Below are positions 13,138-41,919 of a stretch of DNA of 63,387 bases, one piece after another. The first letter of the stretch is position 1. Every line of letters starts with the position of its first letter. Origin of the DNA: a virus. Taxonomy: Duplodnaviria; Caudoviricetes. Position numbers and translations under genes: made by a program. The stretch lies in IMG/VR virus record IMGVR_UViG_3300037558_002241, positions 1 through 63,387 of that record; one strand, 5' to 3'. The notes beneath the pieces are model-generated. The model ran no database searches, had not been told where the DNA came from, and saw only the letters and a list, made by a program, of their open reading frames with translations.

Positions 13138-13922
13138 TTGGATTCAACCACCTCGGCAGACATGGGCGTCTGGGAAACCAGATGTTCCAGTATGCTGGAC
13201 TGCGTGGAATAGCAGCACATAAAGGATATGATTTCTGTATCCCTCCTAGTAAGTTTGAGGATGAGTGGCATGACCACCAACTGTTTGAGTGTTTCAAACT
13301 AACAGGGTTGACAAATATTGCTGTGTGTCCTGGACCTTATGTTCAAGAGTCACACTTTCACTTTGACCAGAATCTGTTTGATAATATGCCTGATGGACAC
13401 AATGTCTATGGGTATTTGCAGAGTGAGAAATGGTTCAAGCATATCGAATCTGAGATCCGTCAGGACTTTGAGTTCAAAAATGACATCCATGATCCCTGTG
13501 TTGAATTGATTGGTTCGGTTGACCGTCCTATTGCTTTACATGTGCGTCGGGGTGATTACCTAACTAACTCTGACAACCATCCTCCTTGCACCAAAGAGTA
13601 TTACGATGCTTGTCTTTCGCGCTTTGATAGTGACCGCAATTGTATTATTTTTAGTGACGATCCTAAGTGGTGTCACGAGCAATTTACAGACGATAGGTTT
13701 CTAGTTTCAGAAGGTGGAGACAATGTGGCAGACCTTTGTATGATGAGTCTATGTGATGATTTTATTATTGCAAACTCTTCATTTTCTTGGTGGGGATCTT
13801 GGTTGAGTAAGAATCCAAATAAAAAAATCCTGGCACCTGAAAGGTGGTTTGGTTCAGGATACACAAAGAATCACAACACATCAGATTTATACTGCGACAA
13901 CTGGGAGGTTGTAAGTGTCTAA
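13134..13922 (+). CDS. GT11 alpha-1,2-fucosyltransferase
   Basis: GRLGNQMFQYA, GYLQSEKWF, HVRRGDY, IIANSSFSWWGSWL. Confidence 0.9.
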   Translation: MIGFNHLGRHGRLGNQMFQYAGLRGIAAHKGYDFCIPPSKFEDEWHDHQLFECFKLTGLTNIAVCPGPYVQESHFHFDQNLFDNMPDGHNVYGYLQSEKWFKHIESEIRQDFEFKNDIHDPCVELIGSVDRPIALHVRRGDYLTNSDNHPPCTKEYYDACLSRFDSDRNCIIFSDDPKWCHEQFTDDRFLVSEGGDNVADLCMMSLCDDFIIANSSFSWWGSWLSKNPNKKILAPERWFGSGYTKNHNTSDLYCDNWEVVSV

Positions 13923-14880
13923 AATTATTGAACAAGAAGGAATTGAAATTGAAAACCTTGGAATGTATGAGGATCTTCAAATCCAACCAGTAAATTCTTG
14001 GGATCTAAGTAAAACTACATTCATCATTCCGTTGAGGATTGAGAGTGCTGATAGGATGCGTAATGTTACAACGTGTCTGATCTATCTCCTCCGCAATTTT
14101 GATACTCAAATCATCATCAAAGAGCATGATTTAGAATCAATATTTTTGAGTAAGGTAGTACCCATGCTAGACATGGCACTACCAGTAGATAAGATTAGTA
14201 AGATCCATCATATTTTTGAGAAAGCAGATCCCGATAACACAGCATTTCATAGGACACGTCTCCTCAATGACATGTTGATGTTGGTAAAGACTCCGGTAGT
14301 TGTCAACTATGATTGTGACATTCTGCTACCAGTCAACTCTTACATCCTGGCACAGAATACTATCATCAATGGGCATTCTCCAGATGGTATTGTAGAACCA
14401 GAACCTGTCAAGTGTATCTATCCTTATGGGTATGGTGATTATCAACGTCAGTTGACAATCGATGACAACGATGTGACTCGGTTTATCAATTCAAACTTCA
14501 ACTTCAATGCCTTCAATGGCAAGGCAAAAGTTTATGATGCTAAGTTTGGGTTCTGTCAATTTTTTGACACGGAAGAATATATCAGACTCGGTGGAGAGAA
14601 CGAAGGGTTTATTGCCTATGGTTATGAAGATGATGAAAGGTATGTGAGATTCAATCAGTGTTCTAATGTCATGCGTATGAATGAATTAGTATTTCATATG
14701 GAACATACTAGATCAGAGAACTCTTGGTTCCATAACCCATACATTGAACAGAATCGTGCACTGTGGGAAAAACTGAAGGTCAAAACAAGGAAGCAACAAA
14801 TACAATACTATACTAATATTGATTACATGACCGCTCGCGGTGTCGTTGATGGAGTAAGACCTAATGACGGACAAGAATAA
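13915..14880 (+). CDS. Galactosyltransferase-like (GT7/GT2 fold) glycosyltransferase
   Basis: FHRTRLLN, NYDCD, GGENEGFIAYGYEDDE, HMEH. Confidence 0.75.
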   Translation: MSKIIEQEGIEIENLGMYEDLQIQPVNSWDLSKTTFIIPLRIESADRMRNVTTCLIYLLRNFDTQIIIKEHDLESIFLSKVVPMLDMALPVDKISKIHHIFEKADPDNTAFHRTRLLNDMLMLVKTPVVVNYDCDILLPVNSYILAQNTIINGHSPDGIVEPEPVKCIYPYGYGDYQRQLTIDDNDVTRFINSNFNFNAFNGKAKVYDAKFGFCQFFDTEEYIRLGGENEGFIAYGYEDDERYVRFNQCSNVMRMNELVFHMEHTRSENSWFHNPYIEQNRALWEKLKVKTRKQQIQYYTNIDYMTARGVVDGVRPNDGQE

Positions 14881-15670
14881 AGCAATCAAAAAACTGGAAG
14901 GTTTTCCTTTTGTTCTGTGGGTAAACCTGGATCGTTATCCAGATCGCCGTGAGTACATGGAAGACCAGTTTGATTATTGGGGGATAGAAAACCATCATCG
15001 CATCGTTGGTATTGATGGTAAGGAAGATGACCCTGCATCATATTTGAAGGGAACAATTCCTCACAATATGAATTCTGGTGAGGTTGGTTGTGTTTTGAGT
15101 CATCTAAATGCAATCAAATACTTTGTTGAACACACTGACCTTGATGAAGTATTCATCATGGAAGATGATGTTGATCTGAGTACTGCTAAATGCTGGACGT
15201 TTACTTGGAAAGATGTACGTCGCCGTGTACCAATCAACTTTGATTGTTTACAACTGACTATTATCAATCCAAATGGCATTACTCTAAAACTACATCACAG
15301 ATTCATCAATGATTTTTCTGCTGCTTGTTATCTAATTACCAGGCACCATGCAACTAAGATTCTAAAGATGCATCAACGCGGTGATCTGTGGAAGATTGAT
15401 CAGAAAATCAAACCCCGTTCAGTATCAGAGGATCTAATCCTAGACAGTGGTAAGTCATACTCAACTCCACTGTTCAACTACCGAATTGATATGGGTTCTG
15501 CTATCCATGAAGAACACATTGACATCTTCCATAAAGGTAGTAAGAATGCATTAGCAGAATTTTGGGAACGTGATGCAGTCGAACATAGTGTTGATGACAT
15601 CATGGAACTTGACGAGTATTGTGGTAGAATACCACCATCTGTATATCTAAACCAAGCAAAAGAACAATGA
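14864..15670 (+). CDS. GT25 glycosyltransferase
   Basis: WVNLDR..DRR, GIDG, GEVGCVLSH, IMEDD, ACYLIT. Confidence 0.85.
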   Translation: MTDKNKAIKKLEGFPFVLWVNLDRYPDRREYMEDQFDYWGIENHHRIVGIDGKEDDPASYLKGTIPHNMNSGEVGCVLSHLNAIKYFVEHTDLDEVFIMEDDVDLSTAKCWTFTWKDVRRRVPINFDCLQLTIINPNGITLKLHHRFINDFSAACYLITRHHATKILKMHQRGDLWKIDQKIKPRSVSEDLILDSGKSYSTPLFNYRIDMGSAIHEEHIDIFHKGSKNALAEFWERDAVEHSVDDIMELDEYCGRIPPSVYLNQAKEQ

Positions 15671-16404
15671 CAGAGCAACCTCAATTTACAGAAATGCAGG
15701 ACTATGGACACATTGGTGTCTTTGAGAACTTTGTCAAGTGGGATTTTTGTGACAGTGTTGTTGACGTATTTGAATACTGGTACAACAAAAAGTATTATGT
15801 TGGTGAAAAATCTGACCATCCTGTAACTACATTGGATGGTAATGAGTTTACCCTAGATCATTTCAATCAAGGCAAGACTCAGTTCCCCAAGGGTGGCATG
15901 GGTCGTAAGGATCACCAGTTGTATCTAGAAATTTGTGATCAAAGTATTACTGCACAGGTCAATCAGTGTATTGGTCAAGCGTTTGAAATTTACGTGCAGA
16001 AATATAAAGGTCTTGTTGATTCTGCTGATCCTATTTCTTCATGGACATGTAAAATCCAACGCACAGATCCTGGTGGTGGATATCATGTATGGCATTGTGA
16101 GAACGGTAACTTCTTGTACCGTGACCGTGTGCTGACGTGGATGATCTATCTGAATGACATCCCCCCTGAGAATGGTGGAGGTACTGACTTCTATCACCAG
16201 GAGAAAACGTTCCATCCTAAGAAAGGAACAATTGTTCTATGGCCTGCTACATATACCCATATGCATCGGGGTGCTTTCTTGACTGGCGAACAGTCTAAGT
16301 ACATTGCTACTGGTTGGTTTATCAGGGAACCTGGTAATGTAACTGAGCGTACTATCAGTCAAGCATTAGGTAATGTTCCCCCTCCACAGGAGAATCTAAA
16401 TTGA
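15667..16404 (+). CDS. 2OG-Fe(II) oxygenase
   Basis: GGYHVWHCE, WMIYLND..GGGT.F, WPATYTHMHRG, KYIATGW. Confidence 0.9.
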   Translation: MTEQPQFTEMQDYGHIGVFENFVKWDFCDSVVDVFEYWYNKKYYVGEKSDHPVTTLDGNEFTLDHFNQGKTQFPKGGMGRKDHQLYLEICDQSITAQVNQCIGQAFEIYVQKYKGLVDSADPISSWTCKIQRTDPGGGYHVWHCENGNFLYRDRVLTWMIYLNDIPPENGGGTDFYHQEKTFHPKKGTIVLWPATYTHMHRGAFLTGEQSKYIATGWFIREPGNVTERTISQALGNVPPPQENLN

Positions 16405-17987
16405 TATTCTATACATGTATCACAAACGACTATGACTGGGTTCCTGATGCATATTATGATTCCAGTTGTAGGTATGTTTGTTTTCATGATGGATCAATTG
16501 AAACTCAGAAAGCACCTTGGGAGTATGTTCTTCTAGAAGAAACTGAAGAGTGCTTCGTAAGAAAATCCTATCACCCTAAACACTTGCCCCATCATTACTT
16601 TGATGAGGGTGAGTTTACGGTATGGATAGACGCTTCCTATCCTATTACAAAAGAGTTTGTAGAGTTCTCTAGAGAGATGGAGGAGTTTGACTTTACGATT
16701 CAGATTCATCCTGATGAAAGAACTTTGTTCGCAGAGTTCAATAAGTTATGCACCTATGGTTTCTCTGAGCATTCTGAGATCCTAGAGATGGCAAAACTCA
16801 TGCACTCTAGAGGATACTGTGGTGAATATTATAAGCAGACTATCAACTGTGTTCTGTGGAGGAGACTGACTCCTGAGGTAATCAAGTGGTGTAATACCTG
16901 GCGTGACTGGTACATGGGTGGTGTGAATAGAGATCAGATCTCTAGTTCTATGGCAGAGTACCTGGTACCTGAGTGTAAGATCAATAGGATTCCCGTACAG
17001 ATAGATTTGAGCAACAGTGGTAGGAAGAAAGAATACATTCAATCATATCCTATTACCAAACCAAAGAACAAAGACATTGTTGATTTGCAGAACAATCTGT
17101 ACCAGATCTTTGGGTTCAAAGATCTCGTAAAGAATATCATCGATAAGACTGTTGATAATATTCCGTACGAGTATGGTGATTCTGTAAAAGATCTGGTTGT
17201 TTTTACTTGCGTCACTAATAACTACGACGAGTTCCCTGAAGACAGTTACTATGATCCTGAAGTTAGGTACGTGTGTTTCCATGATGGAAAGATGGATACC
17301 ACTGTAGGAGCATGGGAATATGTGGAATTGGATTTAGATATAGAAGATCCTAGGGACTTTGCTTTTTATGTAAAGGCAAACCCACATGAGTTCTTTCCTA
17401 AAGGAACCCATACAGTATGGATTGATGGGTGCTTCAAACTTACTGAAGATTTTATCGGAAATAGTAGAATGTCATTTCCATTCTCAGTGTTGAGGCATGG
17501 TAGTAAGTTCTCTTTCCTTGACGAACTCCTAGAAGGATACACCTGTGCTTTCTATTCTAGGAAATGTGTCATGAAGTTTATAGAAAAATTGGGGGAGACT
17601 GATTACAACTTCAAACAATATGCTAGTCCTCAATGCACAATCATTTGGAGAACACTGACTGACGAGCAACGTGAGTTTGATGAGGCATGGTATAAGTGGG
17701 GTAGTGGTAAGTTCAATAGGGATACAATTCCTTTTGACGTTGCTAGACAACTGACTGGTATTGAACCAGAGTTCTATGACAACAGAGAAGATTGTGGTAT
17801 TGAACTTGGGTTCTTCAATAAAGTAGGACGCAGAGGTAAGCATACTCAGAGGGGTAAGTTTGATCAATACCTGACAGCAAATAATTTGCTGAGGAAGTTG
17901 CAACCAATTACTAAACTAAATCCTAGACTGTATGCCAAGTATGATAAGCACGATTTCTATATGAGACACTATGGAATCATCGTTTGA
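16401..17987 (+). CDS. Glycosyltransferase-like protein with two tandem DUF616-type domains
   Basis: Twice: (Y/F)TC.TN.YD, YVCFHDG, WID, W..G..RD motifs. Confidence 0.7.
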   Translation: MIFYTCITNDYDWVPDAYYDSSCRYVCFHDGSIETQKAPWEYVLLEETEECFVRKSYHPKHLPHHYFDEGEFTVWIDASYPITKEFVEFSREMEEFDFTIQIHPDERTLFAEFNKLCTYGFSEHSEILEMAKLMHSRGYCGEYYKQTINCVLWRRLTPEVIKWCNTWRDWYMGGVNRDQISSSMAEYLVPECKINRIPVQIDLSNSGRKKEYIQSYPITKPKNKDIVDLQNNLYQIFGFKDLVKNIIDKTVDNIPYEYGDSVKDLVVFTCVTNNYDEFPEDSYYDPEVRYVCFHDGKMDTTVGAWEYVELDLDIEDPRDFAFYVKANPHEFFPKGTHTVWIDGCFKLTEDFIGNSRMSFPFSVLRHGSKFSFLDELLEGYTCAFYSRKCVMKFIEKLGETDYNFKQYASPQCTIIWRTLTDEQREFDEAWYKWGSGKFNRDTIPFDVARQLTGIEPEFYDNREDCGIELGFFNKVGRRGKHTQRGKFDQYLTANNLLRKLQPITKLNPRLYAKYDKHDFYMRHYGIIV

Positions 17988-18804
17988 GATCTATACGAGT
18001 ATCACTGACGGATATTATCAACTACCTCCTACAAAGCACAGGTCTATCTGCTACCATGATGGCACGGTAGACCCACAAGATGGGTGGGAACTAAGACTGA
18101 TAGATTATTATCACGAGGACCCAGTAAGACTATCCAGATACTCAAAGATACTATGCCCTATCTCTGGACCTAGTGCTTACATAGACGCATCTAAATTACA
18201 CACTGTCAATGATAAGTTTATAGAGGTGAGTGAGAAAGTCTTGAGTAATCATGACTTCTTTTTGATGCAGCACCCACACAAATACTTCTACTTGGAAGAG
18301 TGTGCAGAGCATATACACAGAGGACTGGTTGATTCTGAGACAATCATTGACTTCACCAGCAAAGTTTCTAACTCAGACTATAACTTTGCTAACTTCTTCT
18401 CGCCTCTAGGAACTGTCATCTGGCGTAACGGACCTAGTAGTATTGATAGTCTCTGGTGGGAGTGGTACATGCAAGGTGGTAAGAGAGACCAGTTGTCTCT
18501 TGCAGTGGCATTACAACTTGCTGACGTACCATATGGATGGGCAGAGTCTCGTGAGTTCATCAACAGGTGGTCTGATTCCAACCCTATCGATGGTGCCTGG
18601 TGGAAGAACAAGGGTGGTAGGTATGCAAGAGAAAAGGTAGACCCCACTCCATACATAGATCAACTATGTGCTATAACTGGTCTAAGTAAGCGGGTGCGTT
18701 ACCGAGCATCCATTCTTCGAGAGACTGGTGAGTGGTTGTTCGGAGACATCTCCAAGTATTTCAAACGAAACGATCCTGCCCTGATCAAACTAAGCGGACT
18801 ATGA
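17971..18804 (+). CDS. DUF616-type glycosyltransferase-like protein
   Basis: IYTSITDGY, YIDAS, HP, WW..GGKRDQLSL. Confidence 0.7.
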   Translation: MESSFEIYTSITDGYYQLPPTKHRSICYHDGTVDPQDGWELRLIDYYHEDPVRLSRYSKILCPISGPSAYIDASKLHTVNDKFIEVSEKVLSNHDFFLMQHPHKYFYLEECAEHIHRGLVDSETIIDFTSKVSNSDYNFANFFSPLGTVIWRNGPSSIDSLWWEWYMQGGKRDQLSLAVALQLADVPYGWAESREFINRWSDSNPIDGAWWKNKGGRYAREKVDPTPYIDQLCAITGLSKRVRYRASILRETGEWLFGDISKYFKRNDPALIKLSGL

Positions 18805-19682
18805 TTATCTACTCTTGTATTACTAATGGGTATGATGAGATTCCTGATGAGCATTACTACGATCCTGACATCCAGTATGTAATGTTCACTGACGGGACCA
18901 TCGAGAAGAAGGGACCATGGGAGTTCAGAGAGATACCATGTGACCACCCATGTCATCGTAGACGGTCAGCGTTTGTCAAGATCAATCCTCACAAGGTTTT
19001 TCCTAAAGGAGAGCAAACTGTGTGGTTGGATGGATGTTATGTCATGACAGAGAAGTATGCTGAGCAGTGTAAGAAGTATTTTGAGGAGGCACCATTCACT
19101 ATTATGAGGCACTCTGAGAAGTTCTGCTACCTTGAAGAGGTATTGGAGGGGTTCATGGCATCTATGAACACCTGGGACGATCAGATACTCATTACAAAGA
19201 CCATCAAAGAACTGGGATACAACTTCAAACAGTATTGTAGTCCGGTGTTGGCATCCATCTGGAGGACTATGAATGATGAGTATGAGGAGTTTGGTGACCT
19301 GTGGTGGAAGTATTCTTTGATAGGACCTAACCGAGATCAAATTTCCTTTGACACTGCTAGGCAGTTGACTAAGATGGAATTGAATATTATAGAGGACGGG
19401 TGGATTTCTAAGGAGAGGCAACCAAACGGTGCGAATAAGCATGTGCCTGGTAGTTGTGGTATACTTTTCGGATCTCGCGGCAAACAGTATCGACGTAAGC
19501 GTCATCCTCAAGCGGGACACCCCTTGCAACATAAGCAAAGATCTGCTATACTCAAGGAGTTGCGAAATATTACAGGCATGCATCAAATTTATGCCCGGTA
19601 TGATTTCTCAGAGTTTGTGCTGCGTAACGTAGTACAACCCACAATGCCGTTACAAGAGTCTAATTTTTGTAACGATAAATAA
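18801..19682 (+). CDS. DUF616-type glycosyltransferase-like protein
   Basis: IYSCITNGYD, KINPH, WLDG, WW..RDQISF; ATG at 18801 overlaps the upstream stop. Confidence 0.72.
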   Translation: MIIYSCITNGYDEIPDEHYYDPDIQYVMFTDGTIEKKGPWEFREIPCDHPCHRRRSAFVKINPHKVFPKGEQTVWLDGCYVMTEKYAEQCKKYFEEAPFTIMRHSEKFCYLEEVLEGFMASMNTWDDQILITKTIKELGYNFKQYCSPVLASIWRTMNDEYEEFGDLWWKYSLIGPNRDQISFDTARQLTKMELNIIEDGWISKERQPNGANKHVPGSCGILFGSRGKQYRRKRHPQAGHPLQHKQRSAILKELRNITGMHQIYARYDFSEFVLRNVVQPTMPLQESNFCNDK

Positions 19683-25176: not shown

Positions 25177-25632
25177 ATGGCTACAACAAAACTTCCTAAC
25201 AACCCTTTGGTCTCTGAACTGTTCAAAGCAGTGCACGGTGCTAAGACTGTGGATAAGAAGGTTGAGATCTTGGAATCTCATAAGCGGGATGACGTAAAGG
25301 CAATCCTTATTTGGAACTTCGATAAGAAGATTCAAAGTGCTATTCCTGCTGGACCTGTACCTTACAAGGTAAATGATACTCCTGCTAATGCAGTGGGTCA
25401 CACTCGTTTAGTACAAGAGTGGAGGACACTGTATAACTTTATCCGTGGTGGTAACGATAGACTATCTCAGATGAAGCGTGAGATCATGATGGTTCAACTG
25501 CTAGAGACTCTTCATGCTGACGAGGCAGAGATTGTTGTCCTCGCTAAAGATGGTGAACTACAGAACAAGTATCGCATCACTCGTAGCGTCGTAGAGAAAG
25601 CGTACCCTGAGATCGTTTGGCGTGACAAGTGA
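25177..25632 (+). CDS. T4-like cyanophage hypothetical protein
   Basis: 151 aa; LIWNFD, P.G.VPY, LYNFI.GG, LE.LH..EA. Confidence 0.8.
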   Translation: MATTKLPNNPLVSELFKAVHGAKTVDKKVEILESHKRDDVKAILIWNFDKKIQSAIPAGPVPYKVNDTPANAVGHTRLVQEWRTLYNFIRGGNDRLSQMKREIMMVQLLETLHADEAEIVVLAKDGELQNKYRITRSVVEKAYPEIVWRDK

Positions 25633-26741
25633 AGTTCCTCATTGATCTAACAGATCATTGTAACTCCAAGTGTCCTTTGTGTGCTAGACATAAGACATCA
25701 TATAATGATGAGGTAGCGGTACTAAAACCGGACCCATCAATGAATCGTTCTTCCATTAGTCTTGAGCAATGGAAGGAGTGGTTCCCACCAGAGACCCTTA
25801 GGAAGACAGAGTTGATGTACTTCCAAGGGTCTTTTGGTGAACCTACATTGTGTGAAGATCTGTTAGAAATATATTCCTACACTCTAAATGTGAATAGGAA
25901 TATCATCTTCCAGATGAGTACTAATGGAGGCACCCGAGACCAAGAGTTCTGGGGTAAACTTGGTGCCCTCATGGGAGCATCGCATAAAGATTCTTTTCTT
26001 ATCTTTTCTATTGATGGTCTAGAAGATACCATACAACAATACAGGGTAGGTGTAGACTACAATAAAGTAATCAGTAGTGCTAAGGCATTCATTGCCGCTG
26101 GTGGACCTGCTGTGTGGAGGATGCTAGTCTTCAAACATAATGAGCATCAAACTAAGCGTTGCAAGACACTCAGTCGGTTGATGAAGTTCAAAGACTTTCA
26201 ACACACGAAGGTCAATGATATGTATGATGCTAGTGGGAAGGGAGATGGTACTTTTACTTACGAATACAAAGGCACAGTCAGAAAACTAGAGGTAGTTTCT
26301 GATTCTGCACATGTATTCAAAAACAATCCTGTCGCTGAGGATAGTCCTGTTGACTGTAGATACAAGCATCAGCGGGGTAAACCAGGTCAACTTAGGATTG
26401 ATAGTCGTGGTGTAGTTCATGCTTGCTGCTTCCACCAGTCACGTCTGAGGTTCTTCTACCCAGAGTTCTATGTTCATGATGACATTGATGCTCCAGCAGA
26501 GTTTAGGGACATCAAGAACCCAAACAAGGGGGTGGGTGCTGAGTATATGCAGAAGGTATTCTGGGACAATGTTATCCCATTGATTGAAGACCAGGGTGGT
26601 ATCAAATCTATATGCTTACAACATCATAGTCTTGAGGAGATATTACAGACTCCATTTTTCCAGCATACTCTTGTGGACTCTTGGGATAAGAGACCACATA
26701 TCTGTGCAGATTACTGTGGCACTAAGCGGTGCAGCAGTTGA
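25629..26741 (+). CDS. Radical SAM protein with C-terminal SPASM/twitch-like cysteines
   Basis: CNSKCPLC, GEPT, STNG, FSIDG, VFKHNEHQ, HACC, CADYC. Confidence 0.88.
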   Translation: MKFLIDLTDHCNSKCPLCARHKTSYNDEVAVLKPDPSMNRSSISLEQWKEWFPPETLRKTELMYFQGSFGEPTLCEDLLEIYSYTLNVNRNIIFQMSTNGGTRDQEFWGKLGALMGASHKDSFLIFSIDGLEDTIQQYRVGVDYNKVISSAKAFIAAGGPAVWRMLVFKHNEHQTKRCKTLSRLMKFKDFQHTKVNDMYDASGKGDGTFTYEYKGTVRKLEVVSDSAHVFKNNPVAEDSPVDCRYKHQRGKPGQLRIDSRGVVHACCFHQSRLRFFYPEFYVHDDIDAPAEFRDIKNPNKGVGAEYMQKVFWDNVIPLIEDQGGIKSICLQHHSLEEILQTPFFQHTLVDSWDKRPHICADYCGTKRCSS

Positions 26742-27188: not shown

Positions 27189-27216
27189 AGAGAGGTCTTG
27201 ACACCTCTCTTTTTTT
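27189..27216 (+). terminator. Rho-independent terminator
   Basis: AGAGAGGT-cttgac-ACCTCTCT followed by a T run. Confidence 0.8.
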
Positions 27217-27232
27217 ATCTTATGTTATACGT

Positions 27233-27385
27233 ATGGAACGAGACAAACTAAAAATTATTATCTCCGACCTAGAGATGCTACTGAGTGCTTTGAAAGCAGA
27301 AGTGTACTCTGATGTGGAGTCGTATCGCTTTGATGAATGCGACCCTGTTGAACTTGACTACGACGAAACATACGAAGGTCCATGA
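27233..27385 (+). CDS. Small acidic hypothetical protein (50 aa)
   Basis: Manual translation MERDKLKIIISDLEMLLSALKAEVYSDVESY...; ATGA overlap with thyX. Confidence 0.75.
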   Translation: MERDKLKIIISDLEMLLSALKAEVYSDVESYRFDECDPVELDYDETYEGP

Positions 27386-28035
27386 AACCAACTGTAACCC
27401 TGGTAAGCAACACGCCTGACGCTGAGCAGCTAATGGCGTACGTTGCCCGAGTAAGCAATCCTTCTAACCAAGAGAACGAAAAGTATGCTGGGTTGCTTAG
27501 GTACTGCATCAAACACAATCACTGGTCTGTGTTTGAGCAATCTACTATGACTCTAGAGATCAACACTACACGTGCAATCGCAGCTCAGATTCTAAGGCAT
27601 AGGTCTTTTACATTTCAAGAGTTTTCGCAACGCTATGCAGACTCTAGTCTGTTGAGGGATAGCATTCCTCTTCCAGAATTGCGTCGTCAAGATGATAAGA
27701 ACCGCCAGAATAGTATCGATGACATGGATGAATTTGAGGTTCAGATTCTAGAGAAACAGATGACAACTCTGTTTGATTCTGCCATGTCCCTGTATCAGCA
27801 GATGCTTGAGCGTGGTGTGGCAAAGGAATGTGCAAGAAATGTGCTTCCACTTTGTACTCCCACCAGAATCTACATGACGGGTTCATGTCGCTCCTGGATC
27901 CACTACATCAACTTGAGAACTGCTAACGGTACTCAGAAAGAGCACATGCAGGTCGCAGAGGAGGCAAAGAAGATATTCATAGAACAATATCCTTCGGTGA
28001 GTGAAGCATTAGAATGGCAAGAATCTGCGGAATAA
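27382..28035 (+). CDS. thyX: Flavin-dependent thymidylate synthase
   Basis: HWSVFEQ, QILRHRSFTFQEFSQRY, KECAR.VLP, TQKEH. Confidence 0.95.
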   Translation: MKPTVTLVSNTPDAEQLMAYVARVSNPSNQENEKYAGLLRYCIKHNHWSVFEQSTMTLEINTTRAIAAQILRHRSFTFQEFSQRYADSSLLRDSIPLPELRRQDDKNRQNSIDDMDEFEVQILEKQMTTLFDSAMSLYQQMLERGVAKECARNVLPLCTPTRIYMTGSCRSWIHYINLRTANGTQKEHMQVAEEAKKIFIEQYPSVSEALEWQESAE

Positions 28036-29045
28036 ATTTATCACACAACGGATCTGTTGCTATTGTTGAAGACGGTGAAGTTGTTTTTTATTTGGAGGAA
28101 GAAAGACTTAGTAAGATCAAACGTGACCGGTCTGCTATTCAGGTAGTAAAAAAGTATCTGGACTCTAGTATTGACAAGGTTACTATTTGTGACTGCTACA
28201 CCAGATATTATCCAGAGAAGTTTATTCTTCGACTCAAGCAGAAGAGTAACCTGACTAGAATTGTAAAGGATCTAGGCATCCCTATCGTAGATTATCGTAA
28301 CAGGCATCATGAATGTCATGCTGCCAATGCTTTTTATAATTCTGGATTTGATGATGCTGTCTGCGTGGTGATGGATGGGAAAGGATCTGCTGTTGTCAAG
28401 AATGAACTAAACTTCTGTGAAGTTGAAAGTATTTTTGTTCACGATGACGATGGATTCATTCCTATCTTCAAACACTTCTCAACTTTTTGGAGTGAAGAAG
28501 AGTGTGCCAAACTAAAAGAACCATACTGGGATGGAAGTTACTTCTACAGTGACCGCACTAGTGTAGGTCAAGCGTACCGTAGGGTGTCACGTTTCTGTGG
28601 GTTTGATGAACGCGAGGCAGGGAAGACTATGGGTCTAGCACCATACTGCGAGACCAAACAGGAACCTAATCTATTCAACGTTGAATATGATCACAGTGTG
28701 TGTAGCAAGGAATTGTATGCAGAAGGACACACCACCAGGTATTCTGGTCCAGAGTGTACTAAAATAGAACTGGCACATCGGTTACAAATATCTGCTGAAC
28801 AACATGCTATACGCATTATTCGCAAAGCAGTTATGATGACTGGAAAAACAAACGTTGTTGTTAGTGGAGGATTTTTTCTCAACTGTGTCGCTAACTATAA
28901 GATCATGAAAGAACTCGATATAAATCTATATGTCGATCCTCTTTCTTATGATGGAGGTCTCTCCATTGGTTCAGCATTACTAGAACATTATGAAGACACT
29001 TTATTTGGGACCCGTCTATACCCTGAACCATATCAAGGGGGATAA
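28014..29045 (+). CDS. Carbamoyltransferase, N-terminal (Kae1-like) half
   Basis: GINLSHNGS, EEERLSKIK, HHECHAA, VMDGKG, AGKTMGLAPY, SGGFFLNCVAN, DGGLSIG. Confidence 0.9.
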   Translation: MARICGINLSHNGSVAIVEDGEVVFYLEEERLSKIKRDRSAIQVVKKYLDSSIDKVTICDCYTRYYPEKFILRLKQKSNLTRIVKDLGIPIVDYRNRHHECHAANAFYNSGFDDAVCVVMDGKGSAVVKNELNFCEVESIFVHDDDGFIPIFKHFSTFWSEEECAKLKEPYWDGSYFYSDRTSVGQAYRRVSRFCGFDEREAGKTMGLAPYCETKQEPNLFNVEYDHSVCSKELYAEGHTTRYSGPECTKIELAHRLQISAEQHAIRIIRKAVMMTGKTNVVVSGGFFLNCVANYKIMKELDINLYVDPLSYDGGLSIGSALLEHYEDTLFGTRLYPEPYQGG

Positions 29046-29586
29046 AGTAAAACTGCAAGATGTTGTAGACTTGCTGTTGAAACAACAACCTGTCGCAATT
29101 TATCAGGGCAGGTCTGAGGCAGGACCACGTGCACTTGGCAACAGATCATTGATCTATGATCCACGTGATCCTAATGCCAAAGCAAAGATCAATAGAATAA
29201 AAAAGCGAGAACAGTTCAGACCTTTCGCTGCTAGTGTGATGCTTGAGTATGCAAATGATTGGTTTGATATGGCAGGACTGAGGGAGTCTCCTCACATGAT
29301 GTATGCCATGGACTGTTGGGATGACAAGCGGAGTCAGATACCAGGTGTGTTGCACGTAGATAATACCTGTCGTATTCAGACGGTAACTTCCAGACAGAAT
29401 AAGAACTACTACGATTTGATCAATGCATTCTACGATCGTACAGGTGTGCCTATGGTATTCAATACCTCATTCAACTTGGCAGGTCAACCATTAGTTGAGT
29501 CTCCAGAGGATGCTATGGAAACCTTTCATGGATCAGAGATACCTCACCTGTATTTCCCTGAAGTTGGACGCCTGATTTCAAAATGA
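28990..29586 (+). CDS. Carbamoyltransferase, C-terminal (YrdC-like) half
   Basis: YLGP, GRSEAGPRALGNRS, KKREQFRPFA, HVDNTCRIQTV, NTSFNLAGQP. Confidence 0.92.
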   Translation: MKTLYLGPVYTLNHIKGDKVKLQDVVDLLLKQQPVAIYQGRSEAGPRALGNRSLIYDPRDPNAKAKINRIKKREQFRPFAASVMLEYANDWFDMAGLRESPHMMYAMDCWDDKRSQIPGVLHVDNTCRIQTVTSRQNKNYYDLINAFYDRTGVPMVFNTSFNLAGQPLVESPEDAMETFHGSEIPHLYFPEVGRLISK

Positions 29587-30398
29587 ACTTTTTGTTTACC
29601 GAAAACCGGAAAAAAAACTCCGGCAAAAATTTGGTCATAGGGGTCAACCTATCTAACAATGGATCTATCTGTGCATTATATGAGGGCAAGGTAATATTTT
29701 ACCTGGAAGCCGAAAGACTTACGCGAAAAAAATGGGATCATCGGGTCAAGACCCTGATCAAATACTTACCACAGGCAAGTCACATTGCATTAGCAGACTC
29801 TCACTGGGTGCGTGGCAATAAGAAGGTGGACAACATCAAAGACCTGATGAAGTTCAAGAAAGAATTCCCTGATGCAAAGATCCATGACTATAGAAAGCAT
29901 CATCACCTGACTCATGCTGCTTGTGGATATTACAGTTCAGGTTTTGATGAAGCATCTTGTATTGTAGTTGATTCTAATGGTTCTAAGACTAGTGATGGAC
30001 TTGAAATAGAATCTATATTTTCTGCACCTGATTTTACTACTACTCACAGGAGGATGTTTGGTCCAGGCAACATAGGTTGTGGTCGTCAGTTTGAGGAGAC
30101 TGCTCTAATGTATGGGTGGGACCGTCGAGATGCTGGTAAAGTTATGGGTATGAGTGCATACAATAATGAACCTGCACTCAGCACTCAATTGCAGTGGGAG
30201 CAGAGATATGAAGAACTTTTAGAGATGCGAACATCTGATAATGTTGTAGTTGCTGGTGGATGTTTTCTAAACTGTGTCGCCAATTATAAAATGAAGAAGA
30301 AGTTCCCTCATATAAATCTATATGTGGAACCCATTGCTCATGATGGAGGCACCGCTATTGGAGCAGCATATCTAGCATACTATGAAACCACAACTTGA
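29583..30398 (+). CDS. Second, shorter carbamoyltransferase N-terminal half
   Basis: EAERLTRKK, HHLTHAA, AGKVMGMSAY, AGGCFLNCVAN, HDGGTAIGAA. Confidence 0.85.
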   Translation: MNFLFTENRKKNSGKNLVIGVNLSNNGSICALYEGKVIFYLEAERLTRKKWDHRVKTLIKYLPQASHIALADSHWVRGNKKVDNIKDLMKFKKEFPDAKIHDYRKHHHLTHAACGYYSSGFDEASCIVVDSNGSKTSDGLEIESIFSAPDFTTTHRRMFGPGNIGCGRQFEETALMYGWDRRDAGKVMGMSAYNNEPALSTQLQWEQRYEELLEMRTSDNVVVAGGCFLNCVANYKMKKKFPHINLYVEPIAHDGGTAIGAAYLAYYETTT

Positions 30399-31173
30399 CA
30401 TCTTAGATGTAAGTGCTTCAATAGGATGTAACTTGCAATGTAAAGGTTGTAATCATTTCAGTAATTATTTTGCACCTAGTAGCAAATTAGATACTGATCA
30501 GTTACTCGAAGACATTGCTACAATACTTCCACGATTAGACGTAAATCGGATCTCTATTATTGGTGGAGAACCGTTGTTGAATCCACGTTGCAAAGAGATT
30601 CTCAATGCATGTACAACATACTCTAGTTCTCCTGTCTATCTCTATAGTAATGGTCTATTGCTCCTACAAAATGAAGCATGGATCAAAAAATGTTTAGAGA
30701 ACCCACAGGTATATCTAAGAATTAGTATCCATGTTGATCTAGTTGAAGAGGTGATCAAAAAATTCAATCACCCTAAGGTGCTTGTTACTGAACACCACAC
30801 GGGCAAGGATCGTTGGTTCAACTCAATCAAGAAGCATGATGGTAAGGTACATCCTTACGACCATGGTAAACCTGATAAGAGTTTCAAAGCATGTTCCTGT
30901 CCCAATGCTCAATTATACAATGGTAAGTTATGGAAGTGCCCTAATACAGCATTTCTAAAAGAACTATTGTATGTGACTGAACAATCTGATGATGAAGACT
31001 GGCAAGAGTATCTTGTCGATGGTCTAAAAGTTGACTGTACTGATGAGGAATTGACAAATTTCTGTAATAATAGTAAAATTGCAGAAAGCGTATGCAATAT
31101 GTGTACTGCTAGACCACTCAAGTTCAGTGCTGCCCTGCAAGAAAAAACTCAAAGAAAGGCAATCAAAACCTAA
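30382..31173 (+). CDS. Radical SAM protein
   Basis: CNLQCKGC, IIGGEPLL, SNG, CSCPN..LWKCP, CNMC. Confidence 0.88.
   Translation: MKPQLDILDVSASIGCNLQCKGCNHFSNYFAPSSKLDTDQLLEDIATILPRLDVNRISIIGGEPLLNPRCKEILNACTTYSSSPVYLYSNGLLLLQNEAWIKKCLENPQVYLRISIHVDLVEEVIKKFNHPKVLVTEHHTGKDRWFNSIKKHDGKVHPYDHGKPDKSFKACSCPNAQLYNGKLWKCPNTAFLKELLYVTEQSDDEDWQEYLVDGLKVDCTDEELTNFCNNSKIAESVCNMCTARPLKFSAALQEKTQRKAIKT
31051..31079 (+). promoter_or_regulatory. Sigma70-type promoter inside the radical SAM gene, upstream of the phoH cluster
   Basis: TTGACA, 17 bp, TAAAAT. Confidence 0.55.
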
Positions 31174-31424
31174 TGCCCGTATACCCTGTAAAAAATCTAG
31201 AAACTGGTGAGACTAAGGAGTTGACATTGACCGTTGCTAACTACGATCAATGGCGTAAAGACAATCCTGGTTGGGACAAAGACTGGTCCAAAGGTGTTGC
31301 TTCTGCCGTTAGTGGCACTGGTGATGTCTATAGTAGGACTGATGGCGGATGGAATGAAATTCTATCTAAAGTTGCACAAGTTCCTGGTTCTCAAGTCAAA
31401 CCCCAAAAAATCACACACTCATAA
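31173..31424 (+). CDS. T4-like hypothetical protein (FmdB-like N-terminus)
   Basis: MPVYPVKNLETGE, GWNEILSKV..PGS. Confidence 0.7.
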   Translation: MPVYPVKNLETGETKELTLTVANYDQWRKDNPGWDKDWSKGVASAVSGTGDVYSRTDGGWNEILSKVAQVPGSQVKPQKITHS

Positions 31425-32179
31425 TGACTGCACGTCGCAAGAAGATCATGTCATCTGTAGGTGCTGGAATGACAGCGAAACAGATGCGAAGAAAGAAACC
31501 CATCAACTCAGAGGCGATGGTGCCTATTGAAGCAATCACTGACAATCAAAAAATTGTCTTTGATGCATACAATGAGGGTAAACATTTGTTTCTCTATGGG
31601 TGTGCTGGCACTGGCAAAACATTCATTACTCTTTATCTTGCTCTGCGTGAGGTATTAGATCCATTCACACCTTACAATAAGGTGGTGCTGGTTCGCTCAC
31701 TAGTTTCTACACGTGAGATTGGTTTCCTACCAGGAGATCATGAAGATAAGTCTGCTCTTTACCAAATTCCTTATAAGAATATGGTAAAGTATATGTTTGA
31801 ACTACCCACTGACAATGAATTTGAAATGCTTTGGGGAAACCTGAAGACTCAAGAGTCAGTTACTTTCTGGTCCACTAGTTTCATCCGAGGTACTACACTT
31901 GATGATTCTATTATTATTGTGGACGAATCTCAGAACTTGAACTTCCACGAACTTGATAGTATTATTACTAGGGTTGGTGAGAACTGTAAGATTATGTTCT
32001 GTGGTGACGTAGCACAAACTGATTTGGTCAAGACTAACGAGAAGAATGGGATCTTAGATTTCATGAAGATCGTTGAGCGTATGCCTGAATTCGTACTAAC
32101 TGAATTTGGTATCGAAGACATCGTTCGTTCTGGACTGGTCAAGTCTTATCTCACTAATAAAATTGAACTTGGTATGTGA
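31424..32179 (+). CDS. phoH: PhoH-like ATPase
   Basis: GCAGTGKT, IGFLPG, FIRG.TL, DESQN, GD..QTDL, DIVRSGLV. Confidence 0.95.
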   Translation: MTARRKKIMSSVGAGMTAKQMRRKKPINSEAMVPIEAITDNQKIVFDAYNEGKHLFLYGCAGTGKTFITLYLALREVLDPFTPYNKVVLVRSLVSTREIGFLPGDHEDKSALYQIPYKNMVKYMFELPTDNEFEMLWGNLKTQESVTFWSTSFIRGTTLDDSIIIVDESQNLNFHELDSIITRVGENCKIMFCGDVAQTDLVKTNEKNGILDFMKIVERMPEFVLTEFGIEDIVRSGLVKSYLTNKIELGM

Positions 32180-32859
32180 TGTTTCAACATATAGAATGTG
32201 ATCTTCCTGCACTTGCCAGGAAAAACATTGAAGGAATTAGATTCTACACAGTCAATGACAGACCGATGGTGTCCATCACCTCGGTCACTTCTCACTACAA
32301 TAAAGAAGTCTTTGTCAAGTGGAGAAAGAGAGTTGGTGCAGCCGAAGCAAACCGCATCACTAAACGTGCTACTAGTCGGGGTACAAAAACTCATTCTTTG
32401 ATCGAGACATTTCTCTTGAACAAAGAGGTTGAGTTCACAGAACCTGGTCCTAAGATGCTGTTTCAGCAGGCAAAACAGACCCTACAAAACATAAATAATA
32501 TATACGCTCTAGAAAAGAGCTTGTATAGTGAAGAACTTGGGGTTGCTGGAACAGTAGACTGTATCGCTGAATACACTGGCGAGAACGGCGAACCTGAGTT
32601 AGCAATCATTGATTTCAAGACAGCAGAGAAACCCAAACCACGGGATTGGATTGAAAACTATTTCGTACAAGCGTCTGCTTATGCCTGTATGTTCTATGAA
32701 CGTACTGGTATCCCTGTAAAAAAACTTGTCATCATTATGACATGTGCGAACGGGGAGGTGCAAGTGTACGAAGAGTATGATAAAATGACTTATATGAAAC
32801 TACTCATCCAATACATTCAAAAATTTGTCGAAGAAAAAATCAATGAGTTCCAAAACTGA
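32176..32859 (+). CDS. PD-(D/E)XK exonuclease (RecB/Cas4-like)
   Basis: SITSV, RGT..H, AGTVDCIA, IIDFKT, YFVQ..AY. Confidence 0.85.
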   Translation: MMFQHIECDLPALARKNIEGIRFYTVNDRPMVSITSVTSHYNKEVFVKWRKRVGAAEANRITKRATSRGTKTHSLIETFLLNKEVEFTEPGPKMLFQQAKQTLQNINNIYALEKSLYSEELGVAGTVDCIAEYTGENGEPELAIIDFKTAEKPKPRDWIENYFVQASAYACMFYERTGIPVKKLVIIMTCANGEVQVYEEYDKMTYMKLLIQYIQKFVEEKINEFQN

Positions 32860-33109
32860 AATGCGATCTATTTTGAAGCAAAAGTTCCTGTGCCAGGACA
32901 AATTTACTAATGACATAGAAAACCTGGTGAAAAACAATGTTGAGATGAATTACATCGAAGCAATTTGTCATTACTGTGAGACCAATAACATTGAGATCGA
33001 ATCAGTATCAAAACTCATCACCAAACCTTTGAAAGAAAAACTCAAAGGAAATGCAACACACCTAAATTATTTGAAGAGGACATCCAAAGCAAAGTTTTTT
33101 AGTATCTAA
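32843..33109 (+). CDS. gp33: Late promoter transcription accessory protein gp33
   Basis: IE.LV, NYIEAI..YCE.N.IE.E.V.KLI.KPLKEKL; T4-like position. Confidence 0.85.
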   Translation: MSSKTEMRSILKQKFLCQDKFTNDIENLVKNNVEMNYIEAICHYCETNNIEIESVSKLITKPLKEKLKGNATHLNYLKRTSKAKFFSI

Positions 33110-34185
33110 TGCAACTCAAAGAGTGGACACTTGCTAAAATGTGTAAACATCTTTCGGAAGAAAGATTGTTGGAGGTTAGTAAAAGTGTTGACTATGTGAG
33201 AGACCAAAGAGGATTTTGGATTTCTAATTTCAAGCAGGTTACTCCGGAAGAGATAGCATCTCTAGAAGCGGAGAGACCTACCACAAGACTGCTGAGTATT
33301 CATGTTATCAACGGGTGCAATCTTGCCTGTCGTGCATGTAATCACAACAGCAGTCTTCTTGGTGTAAAGAGTGGTGTTGACATTGATGCATTGATAGATG
33401 ACATCAAATCTTTTCTACCAAAAGTATATGTGTGGAGTCATATTAGTATCATTGGTGGCGAACCATTACTAGAACCACGCACCAGAGAGGTCGTAAAGGT
33501 CACCAGAGAGGTCTCAGAGGCAACTGGGCAGACCTGTAACATAAAACTGTTTAGTAACGGTTCACGTCTCTTACAGGAGAAGGAGTGGATCGTTGATGAA
33601 ATGCTGAAAGGTGTGAACTTCCGAGTAACCTTTCATAAACCCTGGTATACGCAGCAAGGATCAGTAAACTGGGAAAACGCAGCGAAATTCATAAGATATT
33701 GTAAAGAACGTGGCGCTGACACAGAAAATCTGTTAGAATTTAGTGAGGCATTCCGTCTGCTTGATGGAAAACCTAGACAGTGGTTTGATATTGTCAAGTA
33801 TGATATCAAAGATGACCAGATCAAATACTATCCCTTTGAGGAGGGAGATCCTGAGGAAAGTTTCACCCATTGTACGTGCCCAAACAGTCAACTGTATAAC
33901 GGTCAACTTTGGAAGTGTCCCATGATCTCCTACCTGAGAGAGTCCCTTGATGCTACCAATCAAATGGATGATCCAGAATGGCAGAAGTATTTGTCTTACA
34001 AACCCACTAGCATACACTCATCCCAAGAAGAGATTCAACAATCTTTTGATGAGGTAACAAAACCACATTGGATATGTTCCATGTGTCCTCGCAATCCTGT
34101 ATGGTTCACCGCAACCAAACAGTTGGATGCGAAATTGAAAAAAAATGTCGCTATGCATGATGAAGCAACCTATGACACCATTTGA
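33109..34185 (+). CDS. Radical SAM protein (paralog of 30382-31173)
   Basis: CNLACRAC, IIGGEPLL, CTCPNSQLYNGQLWKCP, CSMC. Confidence 0.88.
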   Translation: MQLKEWTLAKMCKHLSEERLLEVSKSVDYVRDQRGFWISNFKQVTPEEIASLEAERPTTRLLSIHVINGCNLACRACNHNSSLLGVKSGVDIDALIDDIKSFLPKVYVWSHISIIGGEPLLEPRTREVVKVTREVSEATGQTCNIKLFSNGSRLLQEKEWIVDEMLKGVNFRVTFHKPWYTQQGSVNWENAAKFIRYCKERGADTENLLEFSEAFRLLDGKPRQWFDIVKYDIKDDQIKYYPFEEGDPEESFTHCTCPNSQLYNGQLWKCPMISYLRESLDATNQMDDPEWQKYLSYKPTSIHSSQEEIQQSFDEVTKPHWICSMCPRNPVWFTATKQLDAKLKKNVAMHDEATYDTI

Positions 34186-40131: not shown

Positions 40132-40557
40132 TTAGTCCTTATAAAATCCTTTCCGATATACCTTAGATGGACTAATATCAATTTCAATAGCGCCGAGGTC
40201 TCTGACAAATTGCTCTGAATCAAGTGCTACTGCTTTGTCCCACTCTTCCATTGAAATTTGTAAAAATGGACTATTTACATATGATTTTAGGTATTTATGA
40301 TAACCTCGCAAACGTGTAAAATCACTGCCTGAATCGATATATTGTATCAATGCTCTTCGATTTGCTGGGAGGTGATAATGTAGGTTGATTCCATAGAATA
40401 TGTTTTTACCTTCTCTTGCTACCACATAACATAGGGGATTCCTATCGTAGTATGGTAATTTTAGGGCAGTTTTTGCTGTATAGTGGAATAATGAAATAGA
40501 TCCTGGAGCAGGTTCACCTACCAATGTAGATTTTGGAAATTCATCTCTATATTCCAA
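40132..40557 (-). CDS. DNA end protector gp2-like
   Basis: F.Y.AK..LPYYD.NPL, FYGINLHY, H.YL...V, EW; T4-like synteny. Confidence 0.75.
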   Translation of the reverse strand: MEYRDEFPKSTLVGEPAPGSISLFHYTAKTALKLPYYDRNPLCYVVAREGKNIFYGINLHYHLPANRRALIQYIDSGSDFTRLRGYHKYLKSYVNSPFLQISMEEWDKAVALDSEQFVRDLGAIEIDISPSKVYRKGFYKD

Positions 40558-40978
40558 GTTCTTTCTCCGTCATTACTTGAAATTCCCACTTTCGATCAGA
40601 ACAAAACTCTTCTGCTGCTTTCCATTTTGCTAAATTTTTAGCATATTCTAGAGATTCGTAAATATGTTTTCTAGTCCTCTTTTTTGTAGTTGGAGGAGCA
40701 CACTGTTTGGCAGGTTTTACTTCAATAACCTTCTCTACTACTTGACCATGTACATTCTTGTATTTGATGTAGAAGTCAGGAAAGTATCTACGAACTTTTC
40801 TTGTAGTTGGATCATAATATGGAATATGAAATTCTTCAGATGCCCATTGTAGTATTGATTCTTTCCGGTCACAATATACCATAAACTTACGCTCCCACAA
40901 TGAGCGATAGATTATGTTTCTAGAGTCCCCTTTGTATTTTTTGGGGTTTGATGGTCTATAGCGACCTTGATAGGACAT
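40547..40978 (-). CDS. gp4: Head completion protein gp4 (TnsA-like nuclease fold)
   Basis: YQGRY.P.NP.KY.GD, IYRSLWE, WASEE, RYFPDF, IEVKP, N.AKW.AA; TAAATA on the minus strand at 41001-41006. Confidence 0.9.
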   Translation of the reverse strand: MSYQGRYRPSNPKKYKGDSRNIIYRSLWERKFMVYCDRKESILQWASEEFHIPYYDPTTRKVRRYFPDFYIKYKNVHGQVVEKVIEVKPAKQCAPPTTKKRTRKHIYESLEYAKNLAKWKAAEEFCSDRKWEFQVMTEKELGI

Positions 40979-41013
40979 ACATAGTATAGCGACCATAGTG
41001 TATTTAGATAGGG

Positions 41014-41919
41014 ATGGCCAAACCCAACGCCTTTGAAAGAGCAAACATAAGCACGGACAAACTTTATGATGGCAGTTCTCAAAATGGAGCGTTGAATCCT
41101 GCTTTCAATAACCAATACGATGTTTCTATCAATTTTGGAGATGCTGAAGGTGGAAATTTGTTGAATTACATCAAAAAATATGATAAGAATGGACGAGGTG
41201 AACCTGGTCAATTCCTATCGTTATTTTGTTCTGAGGCACTGCTACCTGGATCTCAAATTCAAACTTCTAAAGTTGATGGACTCCGCCAAGGATTGTCTCA
41301 GGATTATGCAATATATCGTAGATATCCAGATATCAACTTGACTTGGTATTCAACGCAAGATTATTTTACTAATGATATTTTCAATGCTTGGATGGAGTTT
41401 ATCTCTCCTTTAGATATTGGTTCATTTGGAAAACGTAAAGCAGATAGGGAGACTCGAAAAAACTCAAAAAATGCTGGTCGTAGACTGCAATACCCAAATA
41501 GTTATAAGTGTGGTATGCAAATTACTGCATTATCTAGAGATGGTGGTAGTAATTTTATTACTTATCATATTGAAAGAGCATTTCCAACCAGTATTATCGC
41601 TGCTCCTCTTGCATATGGTAAGGCAGAACTAATCAAGACTACAGTATCATTCAAATACGAAAATTACTTTACTGAAAGGAGTGGGGTTGGAACTGTAAAA
41701 GATACTGCTATTATACTGTCAGAGAAAGAAAGACAAGCAGCAACAGAAGCAGCAGCAAAAGCGGAAAGGGAAGCTAATCAAGACTTTGCTGATGATACTG
41801 GCAAAACTCTTGCAGAGGCAGCAATTCTTAGAGGTGGAGGATCTCTTCCAGAAGTAGTTATTGATGGGGGTACTGGCAATAGGAGTGGTAACACACTATC
41901 TAACAGCACCACTGCGTGA
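41014..41919 (+). CDS. Tail tube/baseplate tube-initiator protein (gp54/gp19-like)
   Basis: LFCSEALLPG, R.Y..I.LT.Y, F.AWM, AFP.SI...L.YG, VSF.Y. Confidence 0.7.
   Translation: MAKPNAFERANISTDKLYDGSSQNGALNPAFNNQYDVSINFGDAEGGNLLNYIKKYDKNGRGEPGQFLSLFCSEALLPGSQIQTSKVDGLRQGLSQDYAIYRRYPDINLTWYSTQDYFTNDIFNAWMEFISPLDIGSFGKRKADRETRKNSKNAGRRLQYPNSYKCGMQITALSRDGGSNFITYHIERAFPTSIIAAPLAYGKAELIKTTVSFKYENYFTERSGVGTVKDTAIILSEKERQAATEAAAKAEREANQDFADDTGKTLAEAAILRGGGSLPEVVIDGGTGNRSGNTLSNSTTA

Follow-up and report, generated by a model that had tools for sequence, protein, structure and literature searches.

Carbamoyltransferases of the TobZ/NodU type are known as one-polypeptide enzymes, in which carbamoyl-AMP is channelled from one of two fused domains to the other. 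How, then, is a phage locus to be read in which these two domains are encoded apart, and one of them twice? Such a locus lies in the IMG/VR virus record IMGVR_UViG_3300037558_002241, all 63,387 bases of which (estimated completeness 33%) are here called the window. Between thyX, which encodes a flavin-dependent thymidylate synthase, and phoH are found a Kae1-like transferase half (N1), a YrdC-like half (C), a second Kae1-like half (N2) and a radical S-adenosylmethionine (SAM) gene, rSAM_b (Table 1). N1, C and N2 are separate, selected genes, and the split is both real and old. Together they probably make up a modular O-carbamoyltransferase of several subunits that belongs with NodU, CmcH and TobZ, with C common to N1 and N2 and with acceptors of the sugar type.

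The gene order given in the first-pass annotation (thyX, Kae1-like N-half, YrdC-like C-half, a second N-half and radical SAM, all overlapping) and its three-part carbamoyltransferase were confirmed by the open reading frames (ORFs) and their Pfam matches. Successive genes, all on the plus strand, overlap by 22, 56, 4 and 17 nt; N1 and N2 score 79.4 and 64.2 bits against Carbam_trans_N (cut-off 24), and C scores 202.1 bits against Carbam_trans_C (cut-off 27). C also aligns to 7xb6 (E 3.2e-36) and to TobZ (E 2e-24), and N1 matches positions 2-322 of the 528 of phrog_1601. As in TobZ, NodU, CmcH, GdmN and NovN, both domain families are strongly matched, and the Kae1-like His/Asp motifs and the YrdC-like core are kept. 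The motif columns HHxxHA, DGxGS, GGFFLNC and DGG of N1 are invariant in 15 sequences, the catalytic-type motifs of N2 are invariant in 20, and 58 columns of C are invariant in 28. The columns HHxxHA, D-x-x-GS and DGG, invariant in N1 and N2, are taken to be the metal ligands, as in TobZ. TobZ reportedly works through carbamoyl-AMP. The same chemistry, from carbamoyl phosphate and ATP through carbamoyl-AMP to an O-carbamoyl product, is what the legend of Fig. 6A in PMC8670742 leads one to expect of the family.

Unlike these enzymes, however, the halves in the window each have a gene of their own, a single C is accompanied by two N halves, and the order of C and N2 is permuted; three ORFs stand in place of the single chain, N before C, that defines the NodU/CmcH/TobZ family, and the solved relatives TobZ, GdmN and NovN are all single chains of 576-702 amino acids. 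Identity between N1 and N2 is no more than 31%, and two segments of N1 are missing from N2, which fits the two substrates implied in the first-pass annotation.

The layout recalls another system. In the synthesis of N6-threonylcarbamoyladenosine (t6A), TsaC (YrdC/Sua5) hands an acyl-adenylate to TsaD (Kae1), the two being separate polypeptides, and the YrdC-like and Kae1-like proteins of the window are likewise apart; N1 even has a weak match to gcp_kae1 (E 0.0016). An RNA or tRNA modification of this kind is nevertheless highly improbable. The gcp_kae1 match reaches 17.7 bits against a cut-off of 207.8, Sua5_yciO_yrdC reaches 19.9 against 25.1, and N1, C and N2 all match the Carbam_trans models strongly. 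Moreover, a tRNA scan found no tRNA genes in the window, where no other link to tRNA was seen.

The family assignment also bears on a published reading. In parts of two papers on cyanophage genomes (PMC9146016 and PMC10436341), a cyanophage gene is called the first step of pyrimidine synthesis, or pyrBI, so that an aspartate carbamoyltransferase (ATCase)-like role in pyrimidine biosynthesis might be considered. That role is scarcely credible for the locus and is contradicted by the family assignment: the proteins match Carbam_trans_N/C, NodU, TobZ, GdmN and NovN, not ATCase, and the gene of MS29 shares 65% identity with C. The pyrimidine reading in those parts of the two papers looks to have been made by name only, and the present assignment corrects it.

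That the split could be an assembly error, a doubt raised in the first-pass annotation, was dispelled at the N1/C junction. A TAG codon lies in the frame of C two codons ahead of its ATG, and the junction is without a homopolymer. Logan contigs from three other runs cover it with 0 differences and 0 indels: X4 (3860 nt, covering 27915-31173; this run may be the source sample), X6 (2427 nt, 27915-30341) and X10 (536 nt, 28627-29162). With N1 as the query, 63 related loci were retrieved from IMG/VR; eight, at 91-99% identity, have identical ORF ends (the same stop and the same start). A frameshift artefact was thus rejected on three counts, namely the lack of a homopolymer, the identical independent assemblies and a stop and start conserved at 8% protein divergence.

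Relatives at a greater distance (56-66% identity) have 0.5-1.6 kb of unrelated genes between N1 and C, which encode Pyr_excise (DenV-like), small membrane proteins, SpeD and DUF4385. Pyr_excise, a pyrimidine dimer DNA glycosylase of 165-174 amino acids, stands between N1 and C in, for example, L014:5956-6465 and at the same place in L018, L021, L036, L039, L046, L048, L052, L053, L056 and L059, accompanied in L053 by speD and DUF4385. Against relatives, the ratio of non-synonymous to synonymous substitution rates (dN/dS) was 0.06-0.07 for N1, 0.14-0.20 for C, 0.07-0.12 for N2 and 0.12-0.25 for rSAM_b, with thyX (0.08) and phoH (0.05) as comparison genes.

The architectures of the locus were then tallied over 57 IMG/VR loci spanning thyX to the small protein or phoH, after removal of duplicate loci per contig. 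Seven arrangements were found: (i) thyX-N1-C-N2-rSAM_b, the type of the window, in 31 loci; (ii) thyX, a fused N1C of 530 amino acids, N2 and rSAM_b in 13, which form a sister lineage; (iii) N-C-thyX-N in five; (iv) thyX-N1-C-N2 without rSAM_b in three; (v) thyX-C-N2-rSAM_b without N1 in three; (vi) thyX-N1C alone in one; and (vii) thyX-C-N in one. AG-345-D19 is arranged as in (v). rSAM_b is confined to loci that bear N2 (47 of the 57), three loci having N2 without it, and no tallied locus spanning the interval has an N without any C. C and N2 nearly always abut, usually with an overlap of 4 nt.

The N1/C break probably came about when a fused N1C gene was split and C began to start at what had been an internal methionine. 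Across its last 198 residues, the fused relative P0243 shares 62% identity with C, and it has an internal methionine exactly at the start of C, in '...KKTSMKTLYLGP'. A midpoint-rooted FastTree tree of the N domains places P0243 with the N1 family (support 1.0), recovers the N2 family as monophyletic (0.999) and joins the two families as sisters (0.82). In the N-C-thyX-N type the break comes after the 'TLYLG' motif and not before it; therefore fission occurred, or shifted, more than once.

Since N1 is absent from the three loci with C-N2 and N2 from one, and since unrelated genes can part N1 from C, one of the N halves could be taken for a redundant remnant of duplication or fission, with no function of its own. 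This is very unlikely, however, given that the dN/dS of N1 and of N2 is like that of phoH and thyX, and that the motif columns are invariant across relatives of 56-99% identity.

That one carbamoyl-adenylate module serves two acceptor modules, as put forward in the first-pass annotation, is plausible by comparison of the loci, because 13 of them combine a fused N1C with an N2 that lacks a C, and three have C-N2 only. N2 is always without a C domain of its own and nearly always adjoins C or, in the fused form, the C end of N1C; it is kept where N1 is joined to C, where the two are apart and where N1 is absent, and C persists as a free protein in this last case. A model of the C+N2 complex points the same way. 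Three runs, built with our own alignments (A2 and A3), gave an interaction prediction score from aligned errors (ipSAE) of 0.94, and the best of three controls scored 0.00; among solved complexes 116 of 157 come up to the same mark, and among mismatched pairs 2 of 215; the partner's predicted local distance difference test score (pLDDT) was 88-89, and the runs share at least 90% of contacts. Residues 1-8 of C, the former linker, contact residues 36-42 of N2 in the model. Of the complex predictions suggested in the first-pass annotation for each N half, that for C+N2 thus passed, but the pass may show only family likeness because fused homologues have been solved.

Separate halves are also known from cultured phages. 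The cyanophages S-RIM44 and Sf-FP1 have, like the window, thyX, a C half (181-184 amino acids), an N half (337-365), the small protein and phoH; unlike the window, they bear just one N, which belongs to a distant N clade, and lack a radical SAM gene. Their records label both halves just 'carbamoyltransferase'. By megablast of the locus against cultured phages, a DNA-level match was found in thyX only. A literature search found no paper on a split or shared-subunit phage carbamoyltransferase, and the excerpted part of Sullivan et al. (2010, PMC3037559) lists a carbamoyltransferase among sporadic cyanophage genes. In the metagenomes, C has matches at E ≤ 1e-10 to 5113 stand-alone C-type proteins (108-347 amino acids), of which the 120 listed have 184-213 residues and PF16861 only; among the best 150 50%-identity representatives that match N2, 111 are shorter than 450 amino acids and 39 longer, some of the short ones being possibly fragments. 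With thousands of free C halves in metagenomes, the split enzyme is abundant in the sea.

One indication of what N1 and N2 act on comes from rSAM_b. The AlphaFold2 model of this protein has a pLDDT of 93.1 and a predicted template modelling score of 0.90. Its cysteines C16, C20 and C23 (CxxxCxxC) are invariant in 40 sequences, as are C171 and C186, and C238 and C241 are nearly so. A Foldseek search placed 'Twitch Radical SAM Dehydrogenase SpeY' first (E 5e-12, TMq 0.66; next entry 7e-6), and on SpeY the model superposes with a VIA Z score of 21.7 and a root mean square deviation of 2.7 Å over 236 of 263 residues (residues 1-259) at 22% identity. The runner-up is BtrN (Z 13.4), and all others are at or below 12.2. 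By its model, rSAM_b is SpeY/BtrN-like in its fold and in its compact C-terminal auxiliary-cluster (twitch) domain, in which the C-terminal cysteines are conserved as well, although identity to SpeY and BtrN is only 20-22% and no sequence family model reaches its cut-off. None of the radical SAM genes nearby reaches the cut-off of an NCBIfam family, and the ESM Atlas returned only generic 'radical SAM' cluster names for rSAM_b. SpeY and BtrN oxidise alcohols of sugars or cyclitols in aminoglycoside-type pathways.

Outside phages, the relatives of rSAM_b (about 25-36% identity) are mainly from Planctomycetota. Of 80 returned loci with rSAM_b homologues, 17 were examined for their neighbours (L125 was left out, as a longer opposite-strand ORF masked its radical SAM ORF, and that of L126 was likewise not called). 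Genes for glycosyltransferases, sulfotransferases or nucleotide sugars lie within a few genes of the homologue in 11 of the 17: nine loci have glycosyltransferases (L074, L079, L084, L101, L124, L128, L130, L148 and L150) and one a sulfotransferase only (L134). The remaining one, L146, carries an N half, phoH and a PD-(D/E)XK exonuclease, arranged as in phages and followed by a fused carbamoyltransferase, a rSAM/SPASM gene, the rSAM_b homologue, an epimerase/dehydratase and DegT; this contig appears to be of phage origin, although it was binned with a Rhodospirillaceae metagenome-assembled genome (MAG). In P-SSM2, the fused carbamoyltransferase PSSM2_308 adjoins heptose nucleotide-sugar genes, and the window itself bears a glycan island of 17 kb. 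Taken together, the SpeY likeness, the glycan neighbourhoods of the homologues, L146 and the context of PSSM2_308 favour a sugar-type acceptor, which is most likely, over phage DNA.

Instead of a glycan, the acceptor might be some other small molecule that arises in the course of infection, for example a secondary metabolite or a compound of the nucleoside type, and is carbamoylated by the same split mechanism. The solved relatives TobZ, GdmN and NovN do tailor antibiotics, and the SpeY and BtrN entries come from aminoglycoside or aminocyclitol pathways. This reading is rather unlikely: no scaffold-building genes (polyketide synthase, non-ribosomal peptide synthetase or cyclitol synthase) were seen in the window, and the bacterial homologues of rSAM_b adjoin glycosyltransferases and not antibiotic clusters.

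DNA is the other candidate, and the one put first in the first-pass annotation, where thyX was placed in an operon with the carbamoyltransferase and the radical SAM enzyme and hypermodification of DNA was held plausible. Under this reading N1, N2 or both would carbamoylate 5-hydroxymethyl-pyrimidines, or a DNA-attached sugar, in phage DNA or deoxynucleoside triphosphates (dNTPs). The location of the cluster amid thyX, phoH, an exonuclease, gp59 and gp32 speaks for it, as does a published phage enzyme of the same family. As described in excerpts of Yang et al. (2021, PMC8670742), this enzyme is fused, of 63 kDa, and makes 5-carbamoyloxymethylcytosine from 5-hydroxymethylcytosine (5hmC) in DNA, RNA and dNTPs; its gene, which like the locus lies near a gene named for thymidylate synthase, co-occurs with that for a ThyA-type deoxycytidine monophosphate hydroxymethylase. 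The enzymes, compared by description only, differ in that the published one is a single chain paired with this hydroxymethylase and the neighbour in the window is ThyX. PF00303, the ThyA-type hydroxymethylase family, was found in none of five related records, one of them of 192 kb and 100% complete by CheckV; the control of this search matched in 10 of 14 genomes. A search for TET/JBP (PF12851) gave no match in the five records, but its control was likewise without a match and the search is uninformative.

Nor does thyX itself tie the locus to DNA. It is an ordinary cyanomyovirus gene (NCBIfam thyX equivalog, 173.7 bits against a cut-off of 87.9), orthologous to thyX of phages without the cluster: its DNA is 72% identical to that of ACG-2014d, which has no carbamoyltransferase there and whose thyX-phoH interval holds three unrelated small genes. 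The interval looks like a variable island with thyX as its conserved left border, and thyX is probably a neighbour of the carbamoyltransferase and not its partner. With the radical SAM partner and the homologues indicating sugars, DNA modification is unlikely; it stays a minority rival because of the replication-module location and the 5hmC precedent. More narrowly, it is quite unlikely that a carbamoyltransferase with two acceptors makes, together with SpeY-like radical SAM partners, a carbamoylated base, or a base-attached carbamoylated sugar, on cyanomyovirus DNA without a ThyA-type hydroxymethylase; were this so, it would be a new pathway of DNA hypermodification in the replication module of abundant marine cyanomyoviruses. 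The carbamoylation of sugars, offered at first only as the alternative, is thus the better supported.

Several observations weigh against a shared C with sugar acceptors. (i) All tallied loci were retrieved by carbamoyltransferase queries, so that each holds one by construction and the tally is uninformative on frequency among cyanophages. (ii) TobZ, GdmN and NovN have been solved as fused homologues, and the complex model covers the C+N2 pair only. (iii) Related phages hold another, fused carbamoyltransferase elsewhere in the genome and therefore another C domain in the cell. (iv) The cluster lies within a DNA-metabolism module, and the glycan island of the window ends about 8 kb upstream. 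(v) No glycan gene is near the rSAM_b homologue in 6 of the 17 loci examined (L099, L126, L131, L136, L139 and L147), and 5 of the 17, all from Pirellulaceae, are not independent. (vi) The case for sugars is circumstantial, built on fold likeness and on the neighbourhoods of bacterial homologues of 25-36% identity.

Were C nonetheless shared and the acceptors sugars, C would make carbamoyl-AMP from ATP and carbamoyl phosphate, as its family suggests, and dock alternately with N1 or N2, whose differing pockets would each carbamoylate another hydroxyl-bearing acceptor. N2 would act jointly with the adjacent rSAM_b, and the acceptors would most likely be a nucleotide sugar, a glycan or an aminoglycoside-like molecule, possibly from the phage's own glycan island. 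Carbamoyl-AMP chemistry would then be run by exchangeable subunits, as in t6A synthesis, with the adenylating half a free subunit apparently common to two transferase halves, and with the fused, the split and the N1-less form all retained at the same locus. An enzyme of this sort would be a parts kit for engineering, and it offers a testable link among cyanophage glycan genes, radical SAM enzymes and carbamoylation.

The gene content of the window points to a T4-like cyanomyovirus (talC, psbA, psbD, plastocyanin, ferredoxin, glutaredoxin, gp59, gp32 and baseplate genes). Its coordinates of interest are collected in Table 1.

Table 1. Features of the carbamoyltransferase locus and its surroundings in the window.
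Feature	Position	Strand	Match or remark
Glycan island, 17 kb	about 2435-19682		at least eight glycosyltransferase families among glycan-biosynthesis genes
rSAM_a, third radical SAM gene nearby	25629..26741	+	Radical_SAM E 7.3e-08; N_Twi_rSAM E 1.4e-10 (below model cut-off)
Terminator-like hairpin with T run	27189-27210		upstream of a small ORF and thyX
Promoter-like match	27198-27226		overlaps the hairpin
thyX, flavin-dependent thymidylate synthase	27382..28035	+	Pfam Thy1 E 1.3e-48
N1, stand-alone Kae1-like transferase half, NodU/TobZ type, 343 amino acids	28014..29045	+	Carbam_trans_N E 4.4e-22
C, stand-alone YrdC-like half, 198 amino acids, predicted carbamoyl-AMP-forming subunit	28990..29586	+	Carbam_trans_C E 6.2e-60
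N2, second, shorter Kae1-like transferase half, 271 amino acids	29583..30398	+	Carbam_trans_N E 1.8e-17
rSAM_b, twitch-type radical SAM, SpeY-like, 263 amino acids	30382..31173	+	Radical_SAM E 3.8e-10
Right flank: small phrog_385 protein, phoH, PD-(D/E)XK exonuclease	31173..32859	+	
rSAM_c, rSAM_b paralogue with N-terminal extension	33109..34185	+	33% identity to rSAM_b, E 2e-50
TnsA-like endonuclease N-terminal domain protein	40547-41044	-	amid baseplate genes

The order of the right flank is the same in all related loci that extend that far, and rSAM_c is kept at its place in relatives, downstream of phoH and the exonuclease. rSAM_a, twitch-type by NCBIfam, is found in many relatives. The hairpin is the sole terminator-like one of the region; the scan found no terminator-like site between thyX and phoH, and promoter-like matches are at the level of chance (13 observed, 15.1 expected), so that co-transcription is plausible. 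Three small contigs of the RNA run X15 are identical to the window inside N1, C and N2; as they come from an oligo-dT library in contig form, they are not proof of transcription.

The glycan island, a possible source of the acceptor sugar, encodes a mannose-6-phosphate isomerase-like cupin, GDP-mannose dehydratase/epimerase-type enzymes and a DegT aminotransferase, and further glycosyltransferases of families 2, 10, 11, 17 and 25, GT7C- and TOD1-like proteins, DUF5672 and a 2-oxoglutarate oxygenase. In two related phages, a further fused carbamoyltransferase (about 460 amino acids) lies by the gp25/gp6 baseplate genes (L154:8321-11789 in G001; L155:7360-8745 in G003). In G001 it is followed by a 280-amino-acid protein and then by a radical SAM protein of 417 amino acids, so that carbamoyltransferase and radical SAM are paired at a second locus of this genome; the ORFs on either side of the gene in G003 are without a Pfam match. 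In Pirellulaceae, a conserved protein of about 341-346 amino acids and no Pfam family always precedes the rSAM_b homologue (L074:6004-7029, L079:5986-7026 and L099:6004-7029) and is a candidate partner of it. A gene for the large chain of carbamoyl-phosphate synthase divergently adjoins the homologue in a Desulfobacterales MAG (L136:4257-6764), which may be chance. Finally, the TnsA-like protein of the window may be a homing-type or mobile nuclease.

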